Below the pieces are notes generated by a model. That model ran no database searches. It had not been told where the DNA came from and worked only from the letters and a program-made list of their open reading frames with translations. Positions 4,558 through 62,018 of a DNA stretch of 64,000 nucleotides are shown here, piece by piece. Position 1 is the stretch's first letter. Each line of letters starts with the position of its first letter. A program made the position numbers and the translations under genes. Source of the DNA: Rikenellaceae bacterium (GTDB lineage: Bacteria; Bacteroidota; Bacteroidia; Bacteroidales; Rikenellaceae). The stretch spans positions 10,898-74,897 of the forward strand of contig JBCQUV010000002.1 of assembly GCA_047173765.1 (NCBI GenBank), given 5' to 3'.

Positions 4558-4724
4558 TAAGTAGGGTAAAATAATTATTGGTGTGTTTTTAAGAGTGCTA
4601 TTGGAGATGAGATTTTTTGCTATTGAATTGAAAATATAGTGGTTCTATACTGAAATTTAATAGTGAAAAATATCGCTCCAAGAGTGCTTTTAAAAATATG
4701 ACAATAATTGTTTTACACTACTTA
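4558..4724 (+). mobile_element. 167-bp MITE, family A, copy 1 (TA-flanked, TIR TAAGTAGKGTAAAAYAATTATTG)
   Basis: Four equal-length copies in the window with unrelated flanks; 23-bp imperfect TIRs; identical to copy at 38982. Confidence 0.9.
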
Positions 4725-7349: not shown

Positions 7350-8654
7350 TTACTCCTTCATTAGGTATGCCTTGAACTCCTCGAAGCTCTTGCCCATCTC
7401 CACACTCTGCTTTGTGCCCTCCATAAATGCCTTAAGCGGAGCAGGTATCTCGACCTTCTCACCAGTGATTCCCTCGACTGTTTCGAGGAACTTCGCAGGG
7501 TGTGCAGTCTCCAAGAACACACCTACTTCGCCCTCTAAGAGCTGCTCCTTGAGTGCACGATATCCGCAAGCTCCGTGTGGGTCGAGCAGGTATCCTGTGC
7601 GTGGCAATGCCTCTGCTACGGTCTCTGCAATTTGAGAGTCTGTATATGCACATCCCGATACTTCGGCGCAAATAGCCTCGTGTGAGCTGCCATACAACTC
7701 CAACACACGTGCAAAGTTGCTTGGGTCGCCAACATCCATAGCGTTCGCAATAGTAGCGACCGATGGGCGTGGAGTGTAGACCCCTGTGTTGAGGTACTGC
7801 AAGAATATATCGTTCGAGTTGTTTGCCGCAATAAATCTCTTCACTGGCAATCCCATCTTCTTTGCTATGAGCCCTGCGGTGATGTTACCGAAGTTTCCAC
7901 TCGGAACACAGAATACTACATCCTCAGCCTTACCCTCTCTCTTCAACTGCGCATAGGCGTTGAAGTAGTAGAACGCTTGGGGCAAAAATCTCGCCACATT
8001 GATTGAGTTCGCCGAGGTGAGCTTCATGTGAGCGTTCAACTCCTCATCCATAAACGCTTGTTTCACCAATGCTTGGCAGTCGTCGAAAACGCCCTCAATC
8101 TCCAAAGCTGTGATGTTTTGACCCAAAGTTGTGAACTGCACCTCTTGGATTGCACTCACCTTGCCCTTAGGGTACAACACATATACGTGGATGCCATCAA
8201 CGCCCAAGAATCCATTTGCCACAGCACTTCCAGTGTCTCCCGAAGTAGCGACCAAGACATTGACCATTTTATCCTTTTTCTCCTTCGCAATGAAGTAACC
8301 CAACAATCGAGCCATGAAACGTCCGCCCACATCCTTAAATGCCAACGTGGGGCCGTGGAACAACTCCAACGAATATATCGAAGGTTCAACCTCCACAACA
8401 GGAGTCTCAAATGCCAAAGTATCGTAGACGATAGCATTCAGACTCTCCGCATCTACATCCTCTCCAAAGAAGGCATCTGCCACAGTGTAGGCGATTTCTT
8501 GGAACGACATCTTGTCGATATTCTCATAAAACTCTGCTGGCAGGGTCTTGATTGTCTCAGGCATATATAATCCCTTATCTGGAGCCAATCCCTTGACTAC
8601 CGCCTCCTCTAATGTAGCCCAATCGGCTTGCTTATTCGTGCTGTAATAGCGCAT
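7350..8654 (-). CDS. thrC: Threonine synthase
   Basis: LELFHGPTLAFKD PLP lysine, ATSGDTG, VPSGNFGN, TAHPAKF. Confidence 0.97.
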   Translation of the reverse strand: MRYYSTNKQADWATLEEAVVKGLAPDKGLYMPETIKTLPAEFYENIDKMSFQEIAYTVADAFFGEDVDAESLNAIVYDTLAFETPVVEVEPSIYSLELFHGPTLAFKDVGGRFMARLLGYFIAKEKKDKMVNVLVATSGDTGSAVANGFLGVDGIHVYVLYPKGKVSAIQEVQFTTLGQNITALEIEGVFDDCQALVKQAFMDEELNAHMKLTSANSINVARFLPQAFYYFNAYAQLKREGKAEDVVFCVPSGNFGNITAGLIAKKMGLPVKRFIAANNSNDIFLQYLNTGVYTPRPSVATIANAMDVGDPSNFARVLELYGSSHEAICAEVSGCAYTDSQIAETVAEALPRTGYLLDPHGACGYRALKEQLLEGEVGVFLETAHPAKFLETVEGITGEKVEIPAPLKAFMEGTKQSVEMGKSFEEFKAYLMKE

Positions 8655-8699
8655 AATTTTTATCTATTTTATTGTTTCTAATTTTTATTGTCTGGTATA

Positions 8700-8897
8700 T
8701 GTCTGGACTGCCTTTACGCCAGGCGGGCGGTGCGAGCCGCACGGGCAGTCTTGTGTTGCGGAGTGGGTACGCAATAGCTTTGCAATTGCATAAAATATAA
8801 TAGTTACATCTGCCTCGAAAGTGAACTTTCGATTCACATCTAACTATTATATTTTAGTCAAAAACCTAAAGGTTTTTGACCCCACCCGAAGTTACAC
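8700..8897 (-). repeat. ~195-bp multi-branched structured repeat, family C, copy I
   Basis: Reverse complement matches 9101-9300 in the closing stem, first short hairpin and 3' module; the long arm differs in sequence but is still palindromic. Confidence 0.85.
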
Positions 8898-8973
8898 GAT
8901 ACGTTACCCTCGTGTGTAAATTCAATCAACGTATTTTATCTTTTTTTTAATCATATTTTACCACACCCCAAAA

Positions 8974-9068
8974 GAGGGTGACTAAAAAGTATTACAACCC
9001 ACCTCTGTCATCCTGAACTTGATTCAGGATGACAATATAGGTAATAAAGTGACTTGTTAGTCATTCTC
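8974..9068. repeat. REP-like palindrome (core TGTCATCCTGAA-cttga-TTCAGGATGACA, 9006-9034) inside a larger hairpin
   Basis: Perfect 12-bp inverted repeat; outer arms GAGGGTGACTAA/TTAGTCATTCTC; AGGATGACAATAT recurs near 61766. Confidence 0.6.
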
Positions 9069-9100
9069 ATATTATATCTCCTTTTGACGTGAATGGTTAC

Positions 9101-9300
9101 GTGTAACCTCGGGTGGGGTCAAAAACCTTTAGGTTTTTGACTGACATATAATTATAATATATGAGCTTGAAAGTTCACTTTCAAAGGGCATATATTATAA
9201 TTATATGTCAAGCGATAGCGTCAGCTATTGCGTACCCACTCCGCAATACAAAACTGCCCGTGCGGCTTCGCACCGCCCGCCTGGCGTAAAGGCAGTCCCA
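9101..9300 (+). repeat. ~195-bp multi-branched structured repeat, family C, copy II
   Basis: Four-way junction plus conserved AAAACTGCCCGTGCGGCTTCGCACCGCCCGCCTGGCGTAAAGGCAGTCC. Confidence 0.85.
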
Positions 9301-9330
9301 TGTTGTAGTCCTATGTTGCAATCCTATGTA

Positions 9331-10539
9331 TTACTTCAAAAGCTCATCCATAAACTCTGTAGTAGACAACTCGCCGTAAGCTCCATGCTTTGCGGACTCT
9401 TCGTCGTAAGCCATCACTGCGTCTGGCTCACGGGTGGGGTTGTATATTACGAATGGCACCGACTCACGTGTGTGAGTGCGTAGTTCGCATGGTGTTGGAT
9501 GGTCGGGGAGCATCGCTATAGTCACGGGCTCCGACATCTCGGCTGCGGCTGCCATTATGGGTGCTACAACTCGCTGGTCTAAGTACTCTATGGTGCGTTG
9601 CTTAAGCTCCACATCGCCCTCGTGCCCAGCCTCGTCACTTGCCTCGATGTGGAGGTATACGAAATCTTGGGTTTTGAGTGCCTCTATCGCTGCCGCAGTC
9701 TTGCCCTCGTAGTTGGTGTCGTAGAGACCTGTTGCCCCCTCAACCTCCACAGGGTCTAAACCTGCATATACGCCAATGCCCTTTATGAGGTCTACGGCCG
9801 AAATCACCGTGCCACTCTTGACGTTGGGGTACTTCTGCATCATAGTCTCCATCTCGGGTTTGTAGCCTGGTGACCACGCCCATATCGAGTTTGCCATATC
9901 CTTGCCTGCTGCTGCACGCTTTAGGTTCACGGGGTGTTTGCTTAATATCTCTTGCGACTTTATGGTGAGGTCGTTAAGTAGCTTTGCTGTAGCCTCCGCA
10001 TCGGGCAAAGTGGGCTCAATCATAACATCCATGAATGGAGTACCTGGTACATCGTGCGGAGGTGTGCACTTTAGAGCCTTGTTGCCACCCTTGATTTTTA
10101 GGAGGTGTCGATATGATACACCCTTGTGGAAACTCACAGTGTCGTCACCCAACTCCGCTTGCAGAGCGTCTATAAGTTCCCATGCCTCCTCATTGGAGAT
10201 GTGACCTGCGGAGTGGTTCTTGATTTTTGCGTCCTCAATGCAGATGATGTTGCAGCGCATAGCCATCTCGCCTGGGAGTATTTCGACCCCCATTGATGCC
10301 GCCTCTAACGAGCCACGACCCTCGAACACTTTGCGCACATCGTAGCCCATAACCGCAAGATTAGCAATCTCACTACCTGGAGCAAATCCCTCGGGCACCG
10401 TCTCTAGCATACCACTGCGACCAAGCGCAGCGAGCCTATCCATCGCAGGCTTGGGAGTAGCTTGCAGAGTGGTCTTATCACCCAATTTCTCTATAGGGTG
10501 ACCTGCCATTCCGTCACCCAGAATTACTATATATTTCAT
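9331..10539 (-). CDS. Cofactor-independent phosphoglycerate mutase family protein (ApgM-like; proposed homoserine kinase substitute)
   Basis: ILGDGM, PGSEIANL, HIEASDEAGH, PDHPTP alkaline-phosphatase-superfamily motifs; between thrA and thrC. Confidence 0.88.
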   Translation of the reverse strand: MKYIVILGDGMAGHPIEKLGDKTTLQATPKPAMDRLAALGRSGMLETVPEGFAPGSEIANLAVMGYDVRKVFEGRGSLEAASMGVEILPGEMAMRCNIICIEDAKIKNHSAGHISNEEAWELIDALQAELGDDTVSFHKGVSYRHLLKIKGGNKALKCTPPHDVPGTPFMDVMIEPTLPDAEATAKLLNDLTIKSQEILSKHPVNLKRAAAGKDMANSIWAWSPGYKPEMETMMQKYPNVKSGTVISAVDLIKGIGVYAGLDPVEVEGATGLYDTNYEGKTAAAIEALKTQDFVYLHIEASDEAGHEGDVELKQRTIEYLDQRVVAPIMAAAAEMSEPVTIAMLPDHPTPCELRTHTRESVPFVIYNPTREPDAVMAYDEESAKHGAYGELSTTEFMDELLK

Positions 10540-10576: not shown

Positions 10577-10700
10577 TGAGTTTGACCAACAAGAGTGAAT
10601 TTTGGGGCATCGTGAGGATTTTTAACCGCAGCGTACTTTAGGTACGTGAGGATTAAAAACCGCAAGGATGTGCCAAAAGTCGCCTTGTTCGTCGAACTCA
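10577..10700 (+). repeat. ~124-bp palindromic element, family D (RPE-like), copy 1
   Basis: Imperfect rod TGAGTTTGAC...GTCGAACTCA with central AACCGCAGCGTAC-tttag-GTACGTGAGGATT. Confidence 0.8.
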
Positions 10701-15517: not shown

Positions 15518-15639
15518 TGAGGTTAAATAGGGTGGCATTTTTTGCACTTCCCTTGTCCTTCAAATCCTCACGTACTTCAGTACGCTGCGGTTTGAAGGAC
15601 TTCACGAAGCCCAAAAACTACTCACCCTATTTAACCTCA
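15518..15639 (-). repeat. Family D (RPE-like) element, copy 2, followed by a partial duplicate (15657-15692)
   Basis: 17-bp TIR TGAGGTTAAATAGGGTG/CACCCTATTTAACCTCA; central AATCCTCACGTAC-ttca-GTACGCTGCGGTT; 19-bp direct repeat at 15537 and 15657. Confidence 0.8.
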
Positions 15640-25244: not shown

Positions 25245-25368
25245 CGAACTTTGCAAAGCGGCGAAATTTCGAAGATACCTTAGCGAGCTACTCGGTCACG
25301 TACTTAAAGTACGCTCCCTCGCATCTCACTAAGCCATCTTCAAAATTTCATCCACTTATCAAAGTTCG
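25245..25368 (-). repeat. Family D (RPE-like) element, copy 3, divergent
   Basis: Rod CGAACTTTG...CAAAGTTCG with central TCACGTAC-ttaaa-GTACGCT. Confidence 0.7.
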
Positions 25369-25538
25369 GGTTGCGGTGGATTTTTTGATTCGGGAAGCGA
25401 TGTAAATTGCAGCTTAAAAACCACTCTTTTTGTAACAATATATAAGGTGTGACGTTGGGGGATTTTTCACTAACGTCACCTTTTGCGTATATTATATAAG
25501 TGGTATAATATAGGTGCTATGGATATGTAGCCTAGCAA

Positions 25539-25738
25539 GGTTGCCCTCGGAGGGTGGGCAAAAAACGCAAGTTTTTTGTTGATTTTTATATTACTTTTTA
25601 GGTCAGGGAGTTCACTCACTGAGATAAAAAGTAATATAAAAATTTAAAATCTTAGACCTAAGATTTTAACCCACCCCTCCGCAACTAAAAACCGCCCGTG
25701 CGGCTCGCACCGCCCGCCGGCGTGAGGCAGTCCAGACA
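25539..25738 (+). repeat. ~195-bp multi-branched structured repeat, family C, copy III
   Basis: Same architecture and 3' module GCCCGTGCGGCTCGCACCGCCCGCCGGCGTGAGGCAGTCC as the other copies. Confidence 0.85.
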
Positions 25739-29773: not shown

Positions 29774-29940
29774 TAAGTAGTGTAAAACAATTATTGCCAT
29801 ATTTTTAAAAGCACTCTTGGAGCGATATTTTTCACTATTAAATCTCAATATAGAATAACTATATTTTCGATTCAATAGCAAAAAATCTCATCTCCAATAG
29901 CACTCTTAAAAACACACCAATAATTATTTTACCCTACTTA
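29774..29940 (-). mobile_element. 167-bp MITE, family A, copy 2
   Basis: Reverse complement of 4558-4724 with about 6 substitutions; TA at both ends. Confidence 0.9.
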
Positions 29941-30059
29941 ATTGCTTTAAATACTATCTTTTGGCAACCCTATTGCATTTGCATCAAAGTTTTATTATCT
30001 TTGTCGTATGTCACTCTGCGCAGGGTGATATGTTGAGAAATCATAAATGTGTATAGAAT

Positions 30060-31823
30060 ATGAATTTTTTTAAAATATTTTTTGCTGCATTTGTTGCAGT
30101 AATCCTAGCGGTGATATTTTGTGTGGTGGTTTTGATAGCTGGTGTGGTTGGGGCTGTGACCGCAAAGTTAAGCTCCTCGCAGAGTGTGGATTCGGAGTCG
30201 GTGTTGGTCATTGATTTGAACGAAACGATTGTCGATACTCCAGATGTGAGCCTGCTTTCGATGATTGATTTTTCGACCCTCTCGATTCAAACCCGAACCA
30301 CGACTTTGGATGCAATTCGTGCGATAGAGTGCGCATCGTCGGATGATAATATAAAGGGTATATATATTCGTCCACGCACGTATGGAGGGCAATCTTTAGC
30401 ACTCCTCGAAGAGCTGCGCAGTGAGATACGTAGGTTCAAGGAGAGCGGGAAATTTGTCGTGGCATACTCCGATTCATATTCGCAAGGGGGCTACTACCTA
30501 GCGTCTATTGCAGATAGCCTATATCTGCAACCCGAGGGATTAGTCATGTGGCAAGGTATGGCCGTGTCGTCGATGTTTTATAAGGGGTTGCTGGATAAAT
30601 TGGATGTAGATGTAGAGGTGTTTCGCCCATCGTCGTGTAGCTATAAATCTGCTGTTGAGCCATTTTTGCGCCGTAATATGTCGTCCGAAAGCAGAGAGCA
30701 GAGTGAGGCTTTGGTGGAGTCGATATGGGGTGGTGTTGTGGCGGATATTGCGGAGTCTAGGACTCTAACTACGTCACTACTAAACAAATCCGCCTCTGCA
30801 CTTAGTAGCTTTGTGGCTTCGGGTGCTGTAGCGTCAGGGTTGATAGATAGGTTGATGTACGAAGATGAGTTGGAGCAGGTGTTCGAGAGGTATGGCGTTG
30901 AACTAAACAAGAAGGGGCGTGCCAATAGGGTGTCGCTGAACTCATACGCTACAAACCAAAAGATTGTAGCCTCGACAATCACTCCGCCCAGCAGCAAAGT
31001 AGCGGTGGTGTATGCCGAAGGTACAATAGTAGATGGTACGGGCGAGATGGGCGAAATCGGAGGTGATGCCTTGGCTCGGGTGTTGCGCGAAGTTCGTGAG
31101 GATGAGGATATTAAATCTGTGGTGTTGCGTGTGAACTCTCCAGGCGGAAGTGCCTTGGCGTCGGATGTCATATGGAGGGAGATGACGCTTCTTCGCAAGC
31201 AGAAACCTGTGGTGGTATCTATGGGTGGCTATGCTGCGAGTGGAGGCTACTACATAAGTGCAGCTGCGGATGCTATTGTTGCCGACAAATTTACTATTAC
31301 AGGTTCGATAGGGGTCTATGGCGTGTTGTTCGATATCGAGAAGAGCCTATCTTCAAAGTTGGGCATAACCTCCGACACCGCAAAGAGCAACCCTTCGGCC
31401 GATTTCATGCGCAGTTCACGACCTATAACCTCCACAGAGCGACAGGTGATGATTCGCAGCGTAGATCAAGTGTACGACACATTTACATCCCACGTGAGCA
31501 CGGGGCGCAACCTGCCAATAGAGAAGGTGCGCGACATATCTCAAGGTCGAGTGTGGTCGGGCGAAGATGCTAGATTGTTGGGATTGGTGGATGGCATAGG
31601 GGGCATAAAGAGCGCAATCCTCATAGCTGCCGAGCGTGGCGGTGTGGCTGGGAATTTCGATATAGTCGAGAAAACTACCCTCTCAGACGACTTCACGTCT
31701 ATATTTGCACCTATAACATCGGCTTATGCTCCATGTAGCGAATATATGGAGGTGCTGAAGGGTCTATACCCCTTGAAATCCAAAAGTGGTGTGGTTATGT
31801 TTTCGCCATTGAGGGTGGAGTAG
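30060..31823 (+). CDS. sppA: Signal peptide peptidase SppA (67K type)
   Basis: Tandem S49 domains, YKSAVEPF, LRVNSPGGSA, AASGGYY, TGSIGV. Confidence 0.95.
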   Translation: MNFFKIFFAAFVAVILAVIFCVVVLIAGVVGAVTAKLSSSQSVDSESVLVIDLNETIVDTPDVSLLSMIDFSTLSIQTRTTTLDAIRAIECASSDDNIKGIYIRPRTYGGQSLALLEELRSEIRRFKESGKFVVAYSDSYSQGGYYLASIADSLYLQPEGLVMWQGMAVSSMFYKGLLDKLDVDVEVFRPSSCSYKSAVEPFLRRNMSSESREQSEALVESIWGGVVADIAESRTLTTSLLNKSASALSSFVASGAVASGLIDRLMYEDELEQVFERYGVELNKKGRANRVSLNSYATNQKIVASTITPPSSKVAVVYAEGTIVDGTGEMGEIGGDALARVLREVREDEDIKSVVLRVNSPGGSALASDVIWREMTLLRKQKPVVVSMGGYAASGGYYISAAADAIVADKFTITGSIGVYGVLFDIEKSLSSKLGITSDTAKSNPSADFMRSSRPITSTERQVMIRSVDQVYDTFTSHVSTGRNLPIEKVRDISQGRVWSGEDARLLGLVDGIGGIKSAILIAAERGGVAGNFDIVEKTTLSDDFTSIFAPITSAYAPCSEYMEVLKGLYPLKSKSGVVMFSPLRVE

Positions 31824-38513: not shown

Positions 38514-38649
38514 CCGAGCGCAAAAAAAGTGTTGTTACGCCAAATATGCAGGGGTAAGAAGTTGAGAGATGGGAGCACAGCATAGCACTCCAAAGCCAAA
38601 GACTTAATCCAGATTTATTCGCCGTAAATTCTAAATTATAAGTGTCGGT

Positions 38650-38842
38650 AGAGGCAGGTCTTCTGACTTATTTTCTTCACTCAACAACCCTTCCCAAATC
38701 GCTTCAGTGGCTATTTTGTTGAGCTTCGTACCCCCAAAATGAGGCACACGAAAAATTACAGCAGCGGGAACTGTGGTCGAATTTCACGACCTTCCCATTT
38801 AATTCTTAATTGCTTAACGCAACCTAAGAAACCTAAACCGCT
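38650..38842 (-). promoter_or_regulatory. Cobalamin riboswitch
   Basis: Minus strand AGGTTT...TTAAATGGGAA-GGTCGTGAAATTCGACC-ACAGTTCCCGCTGCTGTAA...GCCACTG...GGGAAGG...AAGTCAGAAGACCTGCC (B12 box); -7 promoter TAAGTTTG at 38844-38851. Confidence 0.95.
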
Positions 38843-38888
38843 GCAAACTTACATAAAATTTCTGGAATTATAAGCGTGTGAGATAAAA

Positions 38889-38981: not shown

Positions 38982-39148
38982 TAAGTAGGGTAAAATAATT
39001 ATTGGTGTGTTTTTAAGAGTGCTATTGGAGATGAGATTTTTTGCTATTGAATTGAAAATATAGTGGTTCTATACTGAAATTTAATAGTGAAAAATATCGC
39101 TCCAAGAGTGCTTTTAAAAATATGACAATAATTGTTTTACACTACTTA
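38982..39148 (+). mobile_element. 167-bp MITE, family A, copy 3
   Basis: Identical to 4558-4724 by eye; different flanks; TA at both ends. Confidence 0.9.
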
Positions 39149-49723: not shown

Positions 49724-50055
49724 TAAGGGGAGTTCTATTTTCTCCCTGATTTTAATTTTTAAGTAGTGTAAAACAATTATTGCCATATTTTTAAAAGCAC
49801 TCTTGAAGCGATATTTTTCACTATTAAATTTCAATGTAGATCCACTATATTTTCAATTCAATAGCAAAAAATCTCATCTCCAATAGTACTCTTAAAAACA
49901 CACCAATAATTATTTTACCCTACTTAGTTAATAATTGTCCATTTTTAATTTTACAAAAGTGGGTTGTAGTGACTCCTACTACCGATTTTTGTAAAATCGA
50001 AAAGGGATAGTTAGTAGCTGGAAAGTATTTTAGGGAGAAATTAGAACTCCCCTTA
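49724..50055 (+). mobile_element. Family B rod-shaped MITE-like element interrupted by a family A copy
   Basis: TIR TAAGGGGAGTTCTATTTTCTCCCT / AGGGAGAAATTAGAACTCCCCTTA; removing the insert restores a continuous 167-bp hairpin. Confidence 0.8.
49760..49926 (-). mobile_element. 167-bp MITE, family A, copy 4 (nested)
   Basis: Reverse complement of copy 1 with a few substitutions; TA duplicated. Confidence 0.9.
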
Positions 50056-61627: not shown

Positions 61628-61759
61628 ATATTTTACCCCACCCCCAAACCCCCTCCCTTAAGTTCCTTTTCTGCTATTCGCATCTCGGCAATTCAAGCGA
61701 GGCTTGATTGCTCTCGATTTGTCAGCAGCTGGGGAGTGGCTTAGTCGCTTCGCTCCGAC
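61628..61759 (+). repeat. Family E repeat, copy 2, with a 72-bp hairpin insert (61659-61730)
   Basis: Flanks align with 38889-38950; insert core GCAATTCAAGC-gag-GCTTGATTGC. Confidence 0.65.
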
Positions 61760-61828
61760 GGGTCAAGGATGACAATATGGATTTAACATACTACAACTAA
61801 TGAGATAGTTACCTCGTGATTAACCCAT

Positions 61829-62018
61829 CGTTACCCTCGATTTGGGGCGGACACCTGCAAGGTGTCCGAAAATAATAATATCCTATATTTTTGGTCAAAT
61901 TCATTTGAACCAAAATATAGGATATTATTATTTCAGAGCCAAAGGCTCGTTCGCCCAAATCGCTAGCGGAAAACTGCCCGTGCGGCTTCGCACCGCCCGC
62001 CGGCGTGAGGCAGTCCCA
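61829..62018 (+). repeat. ~190-bp multi-branched structured repeat, family C, copy IV
   Basis: Same fold and 3' module AAAACTGCCCGTGCGGCTTCGCACCGCCCGCCGGCGTGAGGCAGTCCCA. Confidence 0.85.

Follow-up and report, generated by a model that had tools for sequence, protein, structure and literature searches.

Repeat copies within the window and their predicted fold

The window, a stretch of 64,000 nucleotides from the genome of a Rikenellaceae bacterium (1.87 Mb in 73 contigs, 87% complete), carries four copies of an intergenic repeat (Table 1). Re-reading of the sequence located all four where the original prediction had placed them, and the copy number proved larger, with 38 sites across the host genome. 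Copies 1 and 2 form an inverted, back-to-back pair (8705-9298) with outer ends GGACT...AGTCC, whereas at first no pair of terminal inverted repeats had been seen. The pair lies inside the thr operon, in the order thrA, proposed homoserine kinase/apgM, pair, thrC; around these copies the neighbouring genes are therefore functionally related, contrary to the initial description. Copies 3 and 4 stand alone. The 3' end of copy 4 is 5 nt from the mrp stop codon, and leaders resembling the GTTAC motifs which precede it are found at other loci. A conserved hairpin upstream of coaBC (window 25455-25485; also L465-L468) is present in all five genomes compared and is possibly regulatory, the junction behind it holding different repeats in different species.

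Table 1. Positions of the repeat copies, their parts and adjoining motifs in the window
Feature	Position	Strand	Remarks
Copy 1	8705..8897	minus	left half of back-to-back pair
Copy 1 parts	four-way junction ~8757-8891; terminal module 8705-8746	minus	
Unrelated CGTC-type palindromic repeat	9007..9033		inside spacer of copy 1/2 pair
Copy 2, whole unit	9101..9298	plus	right half of back-to-back pair
Copy 2 four-way junction	9107..9245	plus	closing stem, hairpin a, long hairpin b, hairpin c
Copy 2 hairpin b	9142..9210	plus	perfect 22-bp outer stem, bulge, conserved apex
Copy 2 hairpin-b apex	9169-9182	plus	GAAAGTTCACTTTC
Copy 2 module hairpin H1	9260..9273	plus	GTGCG/CGCAC
Copy 2 predicted H-type pseudoknot	9274..9293	plus	L1 1 nt; L3 TAA
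Copy 2 pseudoknot S1	9274-77 / 9283-86	plus	CGCC / GGCG
Copy 2 pseudoknot S2	9279-82 / 9290-93	plus	GCCT / AGGC
Copy 2 terminal AGT(CC), conserved	9294..9298	plus	right boundary inferred
13-bp tandem repeat of terminal motif	9292..9329	plus	2.9 copies
Copy 3, single	25539..25733	plus	upstream of coaBC
Three degenerate GTTAC motifs	61808..61834	plus	11-bp period; lead into copy 4
Copy 4, single	61829..62016	plus	between convergent buk and apbC/mrp

The repeat had not been recognised as a named family, and this stands. Rfam matched only a cobalamin riboswitch (38636-38851, minus strand; RF00174, 89 bits) and one tRNA in the window, only sub-threshold generic hairpins within 8500-9500 (the best IS605 match reaching 13 bits, E=5), and only tRNAs at 15 loci of relatives; in none of these scans did the element reach gathering score. 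No published description of the family was found in a literature search conducted mostly outside subscription papers.

Each window copy folds as a closing stem with hairpins a, b and c, and none of 200 shuffles per copy was as stable (folding z of -8.7, -11.1, -8.3 and -9.5 for copies 1 to 4). Read along the plus strand, the junction starts with TCG and continues through the closing stem, the three hairpins in order, CGC and an A-rich linker. The four-way junction with covariation that was originally proposed is upheld: in an alignment of 43 copies, pairing extends to 91.6% of cells and two-sided change to 48 of the 66 pairs, against 34-43% of cells pairing in slid-alignment controls, although these figures do not constitute a p-value because the copies are related, and the comparison with the controls is biased toward structure because the structure was derived from these same sequences. 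Wobble pairs had been thought to be mostly G-U in the plus orientation. G-T does exceed A-C (32 versus 18 in 2127 cells; G-T 1.5%), but the bias is weak.

The outer stem of hairpin b is mostly 22-27 bp long; there is a bulge on the 3' arm, and the apex reads AARTTYAYTT. Its pairing is close to perfect, with 1203 of 1243 positions Watson-Crick, 11 G-T and 4 A-C (53 of 59 stems). Sister copies in G041 differ by 47% (11 copies) and 31% (6 copies) in the 10-nt middle of this hairpin versus 8% elsewhere, and despite this divergence 16 of the 17 score as perfectly paired. Flanking DNA was rejected as the source of the variable stem, the copies' own flanks giving 7.9 and 7.5 matches and other flanks 8.0 and 7.7. 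One old orthologous copy, shared with G045, contains unrepaired mismatches in hairpin b; its arms have therefore not been homogenised in place, and we infer that perfect pairing arises when a copy is made. In two copies (L063, L075) the apex is inverted, which is an event at the DNA level. Conservation reaches deepest in the family at the apex of hairpin b and at the terminal hairpin with AGT.

The 3' module was initially considered near-invariant, which does not extend to the family, where the head of its first hairpin, H1, occurs in five alternative types. Its order is H1, S1, one pyrimidine, S2, S1', L3, S2' and AGT. S2 is found as GCCC:GGGC, GCC:GGC, GCCT:AGGC and GCGC:GCGC, and further as GGCC:GGCC, GTCC:GGAC, GAC:GTC and GTC:GAC; S1 as CGCC:GGCG, TGCC:GGCA, CTC:GAG, CGC:GCG, TGC:GCA and CC:GG. 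L3 shortens with S1 (4 bp/3 nt, 3/2, 2/1), a trait of true RNA pseudoknots. Modules were chosen by the H1 head only, and 14 of 139 rows were set aside because they lay on the reverse strand or could not be anchored. The tail proved to pair with its own loop in 38 of 46 distinct variants (115 of 125 instances), whereas 5000 shuffles gave 9.9 variants on average and 19 at most. The closing stem of the three-way junction first proposed, ACYGCC/GGCAGT, has by comparison only 2 two-sided changes over 43 rows, although most copies in the host genome remain able to form it; six to seven of its pairs are possible in 57 of 88 main-type copies and only two to four in three other types. The pattern of covariation suggests that the module is better read as a hairpin, an H-type pseudoknot and AGT, and that the three-way junction may be an alternative fold in the host genome and not the conserved one. 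Compact pseudoknots with a 1-nt L1 have a geometry known from RNA; in DNA, S1 and S2 could form as alternative hairpins. On the deepest branches a plain hairpin replaces the pseudoknot, usually followed by AGT, GGT or GAT.

The terminal AGTCC is strongly conserved (A 92, G 92, T 87, C 80, C 81 across 102 ends). Orthologous sites in G045 retain the module with a different junction, or the junction with a different module, so that the two parts are exchangeable. There is also a second class of repeat (L051, L052, L077, L034, L055, L040) with the same terminal module and another extension after AGTCC, arranged as inward-facing pairs with long inverted arms.

Distribution, empty sites and tRNA-linked relatives

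The host genome contains 35 matches to the module as originally described, and 44 terminal modules when variants are included. A diverged junction copy (G000:C69:6380-6589) lies outside the site counts, and two apparent scars (C27:23165-23316 and 29892-30090) keep only the AGTCCAGAC end. The covariance model R2 matched 13 of 149 other genomes of the same genus, seven of these carriers with at least 15 matches each, and none of 149 genomes sampled across the order. The broader, junction-only model R3 gave matches in 22 of 149 other Rikenellaceae, spread over 9 of the 31 genera, an upper figure because some weak matches (L287, L289, L291; E ~1e-4 to 1e-3) look like chance on inspection. Of 18 members of a second genus it matched 8, and of 149 genomes sampled from the whole phylum none. 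The counts are from samples, zero denoting absence from the genomes searched; thus a wider search with a covariance model, as first suggested, has extended the family within the Rikenellaceae and not to the wider phylum. Similarly, 43 of 54 matches in a genome collection belong to the Rikenellaceae, the other 11 lying in GC-rich coding sequence and being discarded as chance. Window sequence occurs in fish gut metagenome runs, and a metagenome scan gave one locus. In viral contigs three patterns gave zero matches and two looser patterns 6 and 58, none with model support and without a tRNA among the 58; there was no real match in PLSDB or in phage collections either.

Empty sites, for which a search had been proposed, were readily found. 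The apgM-thrC junction measures 13-30 bp in G041-G043 and in both operon copies of G044, so that the site of the copy 1/2 pair is empty in four of five relatives; in the fifth, G045, it holds another, decayed pair. The copy 3 site is empty in all four relatives compared. Relatives carry elements at 25 syntenic sites; the host genome lacks the element at 17 of these and shares the other 8, the shared sites indicating slow movement. Ten outward pairs retain both modules. Partner ends of seven are more alike than permuted ones (2/5040), and a pair therefore behaves as a unit, its two halves often being of different subtypes. More widely spaced 'pairs' enclosed ordinary genes. Neither strain-level contigs nor a 20-kb region yielded an excision joint, none being seen in the former and none clean in the latter.

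Other repeats accompany the element. A 168-bp MITE with terminal inverted repeats TAAGTAGKGTAAAA (window 4558-4724, 29774-29940, 38982-39148 and 49760-49926) has about 90 near-identical copies in the genome (185 end matches); it inserts into AT-rich DNA, hairpin b included, and interrupts several copies of the element. IS630-like transposase fragments on C2 and C22 have an end similar to that of this MITE. Another REP-like family, with core TCACGTAC...GTACGCT (window 10630-10649, 15568-15586 and 25296-25315), gives 37 genome matches, often beside the element. The CCCCTCCC/GGGAGGGG repeat (window 61636-61748; 31 matches) is interrupted at 61684 by a further hairpin repeat. We had taken it to be DUF559-linked; the pattern used did not detect it beside 13 DUF559 genes, and the host genome has no DUF559.

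Element 3' ends adjoin genes: for 26 of 33 the stop codon of a converging gene is 4-129 nt away, the other seven abut gene starts, and convergent junctions are favoured, elements occupying 16 of 171 of these as against 15 of 1206 others. Such placement would be expected of a host-selected RNA 3'-end element spread by recombination, be it a bidirectional terminator, an RNase III substrate, an mRNA stabiliser or a trailer RNA resembling the tRNA-linked repeats (TLRs) of E. coli, which the available text of PMC8144298 reports to be transcribed and processed. Hairpin b, at about two helical turns and flanked by A and T tracts, would also suit this role. The orientation of the element to transcription is variable however, and the copy 1/2 pair sits inside an operon; a crude scan called no terminator-like site in that pair, orthologous sites are often empty and the loops, discussed below, are of DNA type. 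Selection as an RNA 3' end thus appears rather unlikely.

In relatives, 43 of 68 element sites coincide with breaks in synteny, and integrases are present in 5 of 5 genomes tested. Integron attC sites, which PMC8266576 mentions, conserve shape over sequence, have extrahelical bases and one active strand, and lie after stop codons; the element likewise conserves shape over sequence, has extrahelical bases, would have one active strand and follows stops. It could accordingly be imagined as a folded, attC-like recombination site whose use by a tyrosine recombinase would rearrange operons at the 3' end. By contrast with attC, the element is branched and has neither a conserved GTTRRRY/RYYYAAC core pair (GTTAGGC is only one of many loop and tail variants) nor cassette arrays. 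A role in rearrangement was rejected, since convergent junctions break alike without an element (18 of 22) and with one (11 of 12 and 6 of 7), and there is very little to commend an attC-like site. Operons in the G000 clade are reshuffled at their 3' ends: gene order breaks at only 4 of 43 divergent junctions versus the 18 of 22 element-free convergent ones (G000 against G041, G042, G043 and G045).

A different association is seen in six other genomes, where copies lie directly behind a tRNA (G352, G400, G109, G380, G348 and G385; tRNA-Arg, -Thr, three tRNA-Ser and -Pro). In G352, 17 bp of the tRNA 3' end, starting in the T-loop and preceded by GCGAAGTC, are perfectly repeated on the far side of the copy and so bracket it. 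G400 shows a perfect repeat of 15 bp, G109 an imperfect one together with a second unit in tandem, and the other three have remnants or nothing clear. The right boundary falls just after AGTY in G352 and G109, and by extension from these AGT(CC) is the putative right boundary of the window copies. The position behind tRNAs, the perfect 15-17-bp copy of the tRNA 3' end and the tandem unit recall the E. coli TLR (rtT/RttR), which in the available text of PMC8144298 ends in an 18-19-bp copy of the 3' end of the upstream RNA gene and is reported to be without known function. TRIP1, as far as the accessible part of PMC10888264 describes it, is not tRNA-linked. Unlike TLRs, the family is mostly dispersed, all 38 host-genome sites being away from tRNA and tmRNA genes (0 of 35 with an element within 600 bp), and it gives no Rfam RttR match. 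The tRNA-linked form may be ancestral.

These relatives qualify the original statement that there is no target duplication. It holds in the host clade, where none was detected at 84 ends (0-1 own versus 0-1 null matches), and fails for the tRNA-linked relatives, two of which have perfect duplications of 15-17 bp. Short tandem repeats of the terminal motif follow the 3' end at 25% of 102 ends, compared with 9% in shuffled sequence.

DNA-type loops and the search for a mover

Loop composition bears on whether DNA or RNA is the acting form. In 101 elements, GNA accounts for 79 of 152 triloops and the reverse-strand form TNC for one, compared with GNA counts of 8 of 131 in post-stop DNA, 5 of 25 in terminator-like sequences and 17 of 403 in shuffled ones, whilst of 244 tetraloops 18 are GNRA and 2 UNCG; all these counts overstate independence because copies are related. 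The pairs closing GNA loops are 55 C:G, 24 T:A and 0 G:C, a pattern which matches the d(GNA) stability rules given in the available part of PMC3201870. Folding energy gives no strand preference (59 and 52 of 101). Two metatranscriptome runs contain contigs covering most of the copy 1/2 pair, in which DNA carry-over is possible; these data consist of contigs only, and strand, ends and level are unreadable. On loops and pairing, the evidence favours action as plus-strand single-stranded DNA rather than as a non-coding RNA. The initial proposal of a non-autonomous element or non-coding RNA selected for shape has thus fared better in its first half, for which the empty sites speak, than in its second.

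The enzymes first named as possible movers find little place in the carriers. Y1 (PF01797) was found in 0 of 6 genomes and in 2 of 150 in the genus sample, neither of them among its 14 carriers (82-93% complete), and RAYT (model NF047646) and TnpB each in 0 of 5 carriers. A search for IscB by RRXRR was blank, as were its control searches. Reverse transcriptase is present in 6 of 28 carriers and absent from the host genome, and of 14 RT loci the 8 examined contain no element.

These results weigh upon two explanations. The element might be a SINE-like structured RNA, inserted into new sites by target-primed reverse transcription with an enzyme supplied in trans, a scheme in which the 15-17-bp target duplications at tRNA ends, the short tandem tails and the scaling of L3 with S1 would all find a place. 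With so few RT-bearing carriers and no element at the RT loci, with DNA-type loops and scarce G-U pairs, and with a high-copy clade devoid of duplication, we consider it unlikely. Alternatively the repeat could be an ordinary REP/REPIN family whose RAYT has been lost, or missed in incomplete genomes. Extragenic inverted doublets, arms that vary yet remain paired and long persistence in a lineage are all REPIN traits, but the foot of the hairpin lacks a GTAG-type tag, neither Y1 nor the RAYT model is found in the carriers tested, and the presence of young copies with perfect pairing points to a recent mover. An ordinary REPIN family is accordingly improbable.

Other candidates were not linked to the element. 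Rpn/PDDEXK_2 was found in 0 of 15; DUF559 is encoded by 18 of 150 genomes, G109 being the sole carrier among them. Small GIY-YIG genes are found in 6 of 22 carriers, but the repeats on their flanks are of CGTC type, and 0 of 8 such loci gave a match to the element model, one loose module lying beside L416. IS110 is present in 2 of 5 genomes and nowhere near the element in the host; in G130 both IS110 matches lie close to an element, at 0.3 and 1 kb, without shared ends. Neither an HxH motif scan nor a search for genes repeat-flanked on both sides gave a candidate, and no recurring accessory gene emerged from 185 small ORFs adjoining elements or from 36 neighbours scanned with Pfam, the neighbours being housekeeping genes. 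The genomes are mostly incomplete assemblies, prone to lose mobile DNA, and Pfam may miss a divergent enzyme.

Two further arrangements were observed. A single intact-looking IS110-family gene (L470, G000:C64:69605-70690) is followed by a hairpin whose apex, CAAGTTTACTTG, is shared with hairpin b. CGTC-type palindromes, of which one lies in the spacer of the copy 1/2 pair, flank stand-alone GIY-YIG genes of ~95 aa on both sides in relatives (L415-L419, L421, L438). By analogy this layout would be REPtron-like with a non-HUH enzyme; the repeats persist in the host genome, whose only GIY-YIG match is UvrC.

Proposed transposition and comparison with known repeats

On balance the repeat is probably a non-autonomous mobile element of the Rikenellaceae which, as folded single-stranded DNA, is moved by a structure-specific strand-transfer enzyme acting in trans. 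It is envisaged that (i) the plus strand folds once exposed as single-stranded DNA and (ii) a protein recognises the apex and bulge of hairpin b, which lie mostly 22-27 bp from the junction, together with the terminal hairpin or pseudoknot and AGTY. (iii) A cut just after AGTY would then allow that end to be joined to a target nick, which in the tRNA-linked form would fall at the T-loop, repair duplicating 15-17 bp. (iv) Mismatches in hairpin b would be corrected in the folded intermediate, so that both arms would change together. (v) The short tandem tails would arise where one site is used repeatedly. Since the host clade has no target duplication, steps (iii) and (v) rest on other genomes, namely on two perfect and a few partial duplications.

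As a first guess, the mover may be a small HUH-like or structure-specific nuclease, modelled on the GIY-YIG genes flanked by the neighbouring repeat. It is possible, although we put this forward tentatively, that it belongs to an undescribed class of single-stranded DNA transposition or recombination enzyme which reads a DNA four-way junction and pseudoknot, and which used T-loop targets first and gene ends later.

A number of parallels can be drawn with known systems. As with REPs and REPINs in the available text of PMC3337134 and PMC8266576, the element is non-autonomous, extragenic and multi-copy, forms inverted doublets, has strand-specific loop and bulge features and persists in its lineage; as with the REPINs of the former source, arms and spacer vary yet stay paired. 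By analogy it may work like a REPIN. The element differs in its size (~190 nt per half) and its four-way junction and pseudoknot, in having AGT 3' of the last hairpin where REPs have GTAG 5' of it, in halves that are often of different subtypes and in that no Y1 gene was found in the carriers tested. The motifs upstream of its hairpin are GCCC, GCTC, ATCC and GCAC rather than GTAG-type. REP families have a cognate RAYT gene flanked by the repeats, whose product cuts single-stranded DNA at CT. It is not classed as a REPIN because two defining features, the GTAG tag and a cognate RAYT, were looked for and not found.

IS200/IS605-derived elements and the omega-RNA loci of TnpB and IscB have structured ends with a pseudoknot directly before a variable flank. 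The element shares these features, but neither TnpA nor TnpB was found in the carriers tested. It differs also from retron msr-msd and retroposons, which have a cognate RT, in that only 6 of 28 carriers have an RT and none of the 8 RT loci examined contains the element.

To our knowledge, RAYT is the one mover characterised for the persistent palindromic repeats of bacteria. The present repeat is larger and branched, has young copies, empty sites and target duplications, and is accompanied by no RAYT in the carriers tested; the finding also ties dispersed repeats to tRNA-linked ones. The module is a possible natural DNA pseudoknot with support from covariation. With a predicted cut after AGTY and a predicted T-loop target, the element may provide a defined substrate for finding another enzyme of single-stranded DNA strand transfer.
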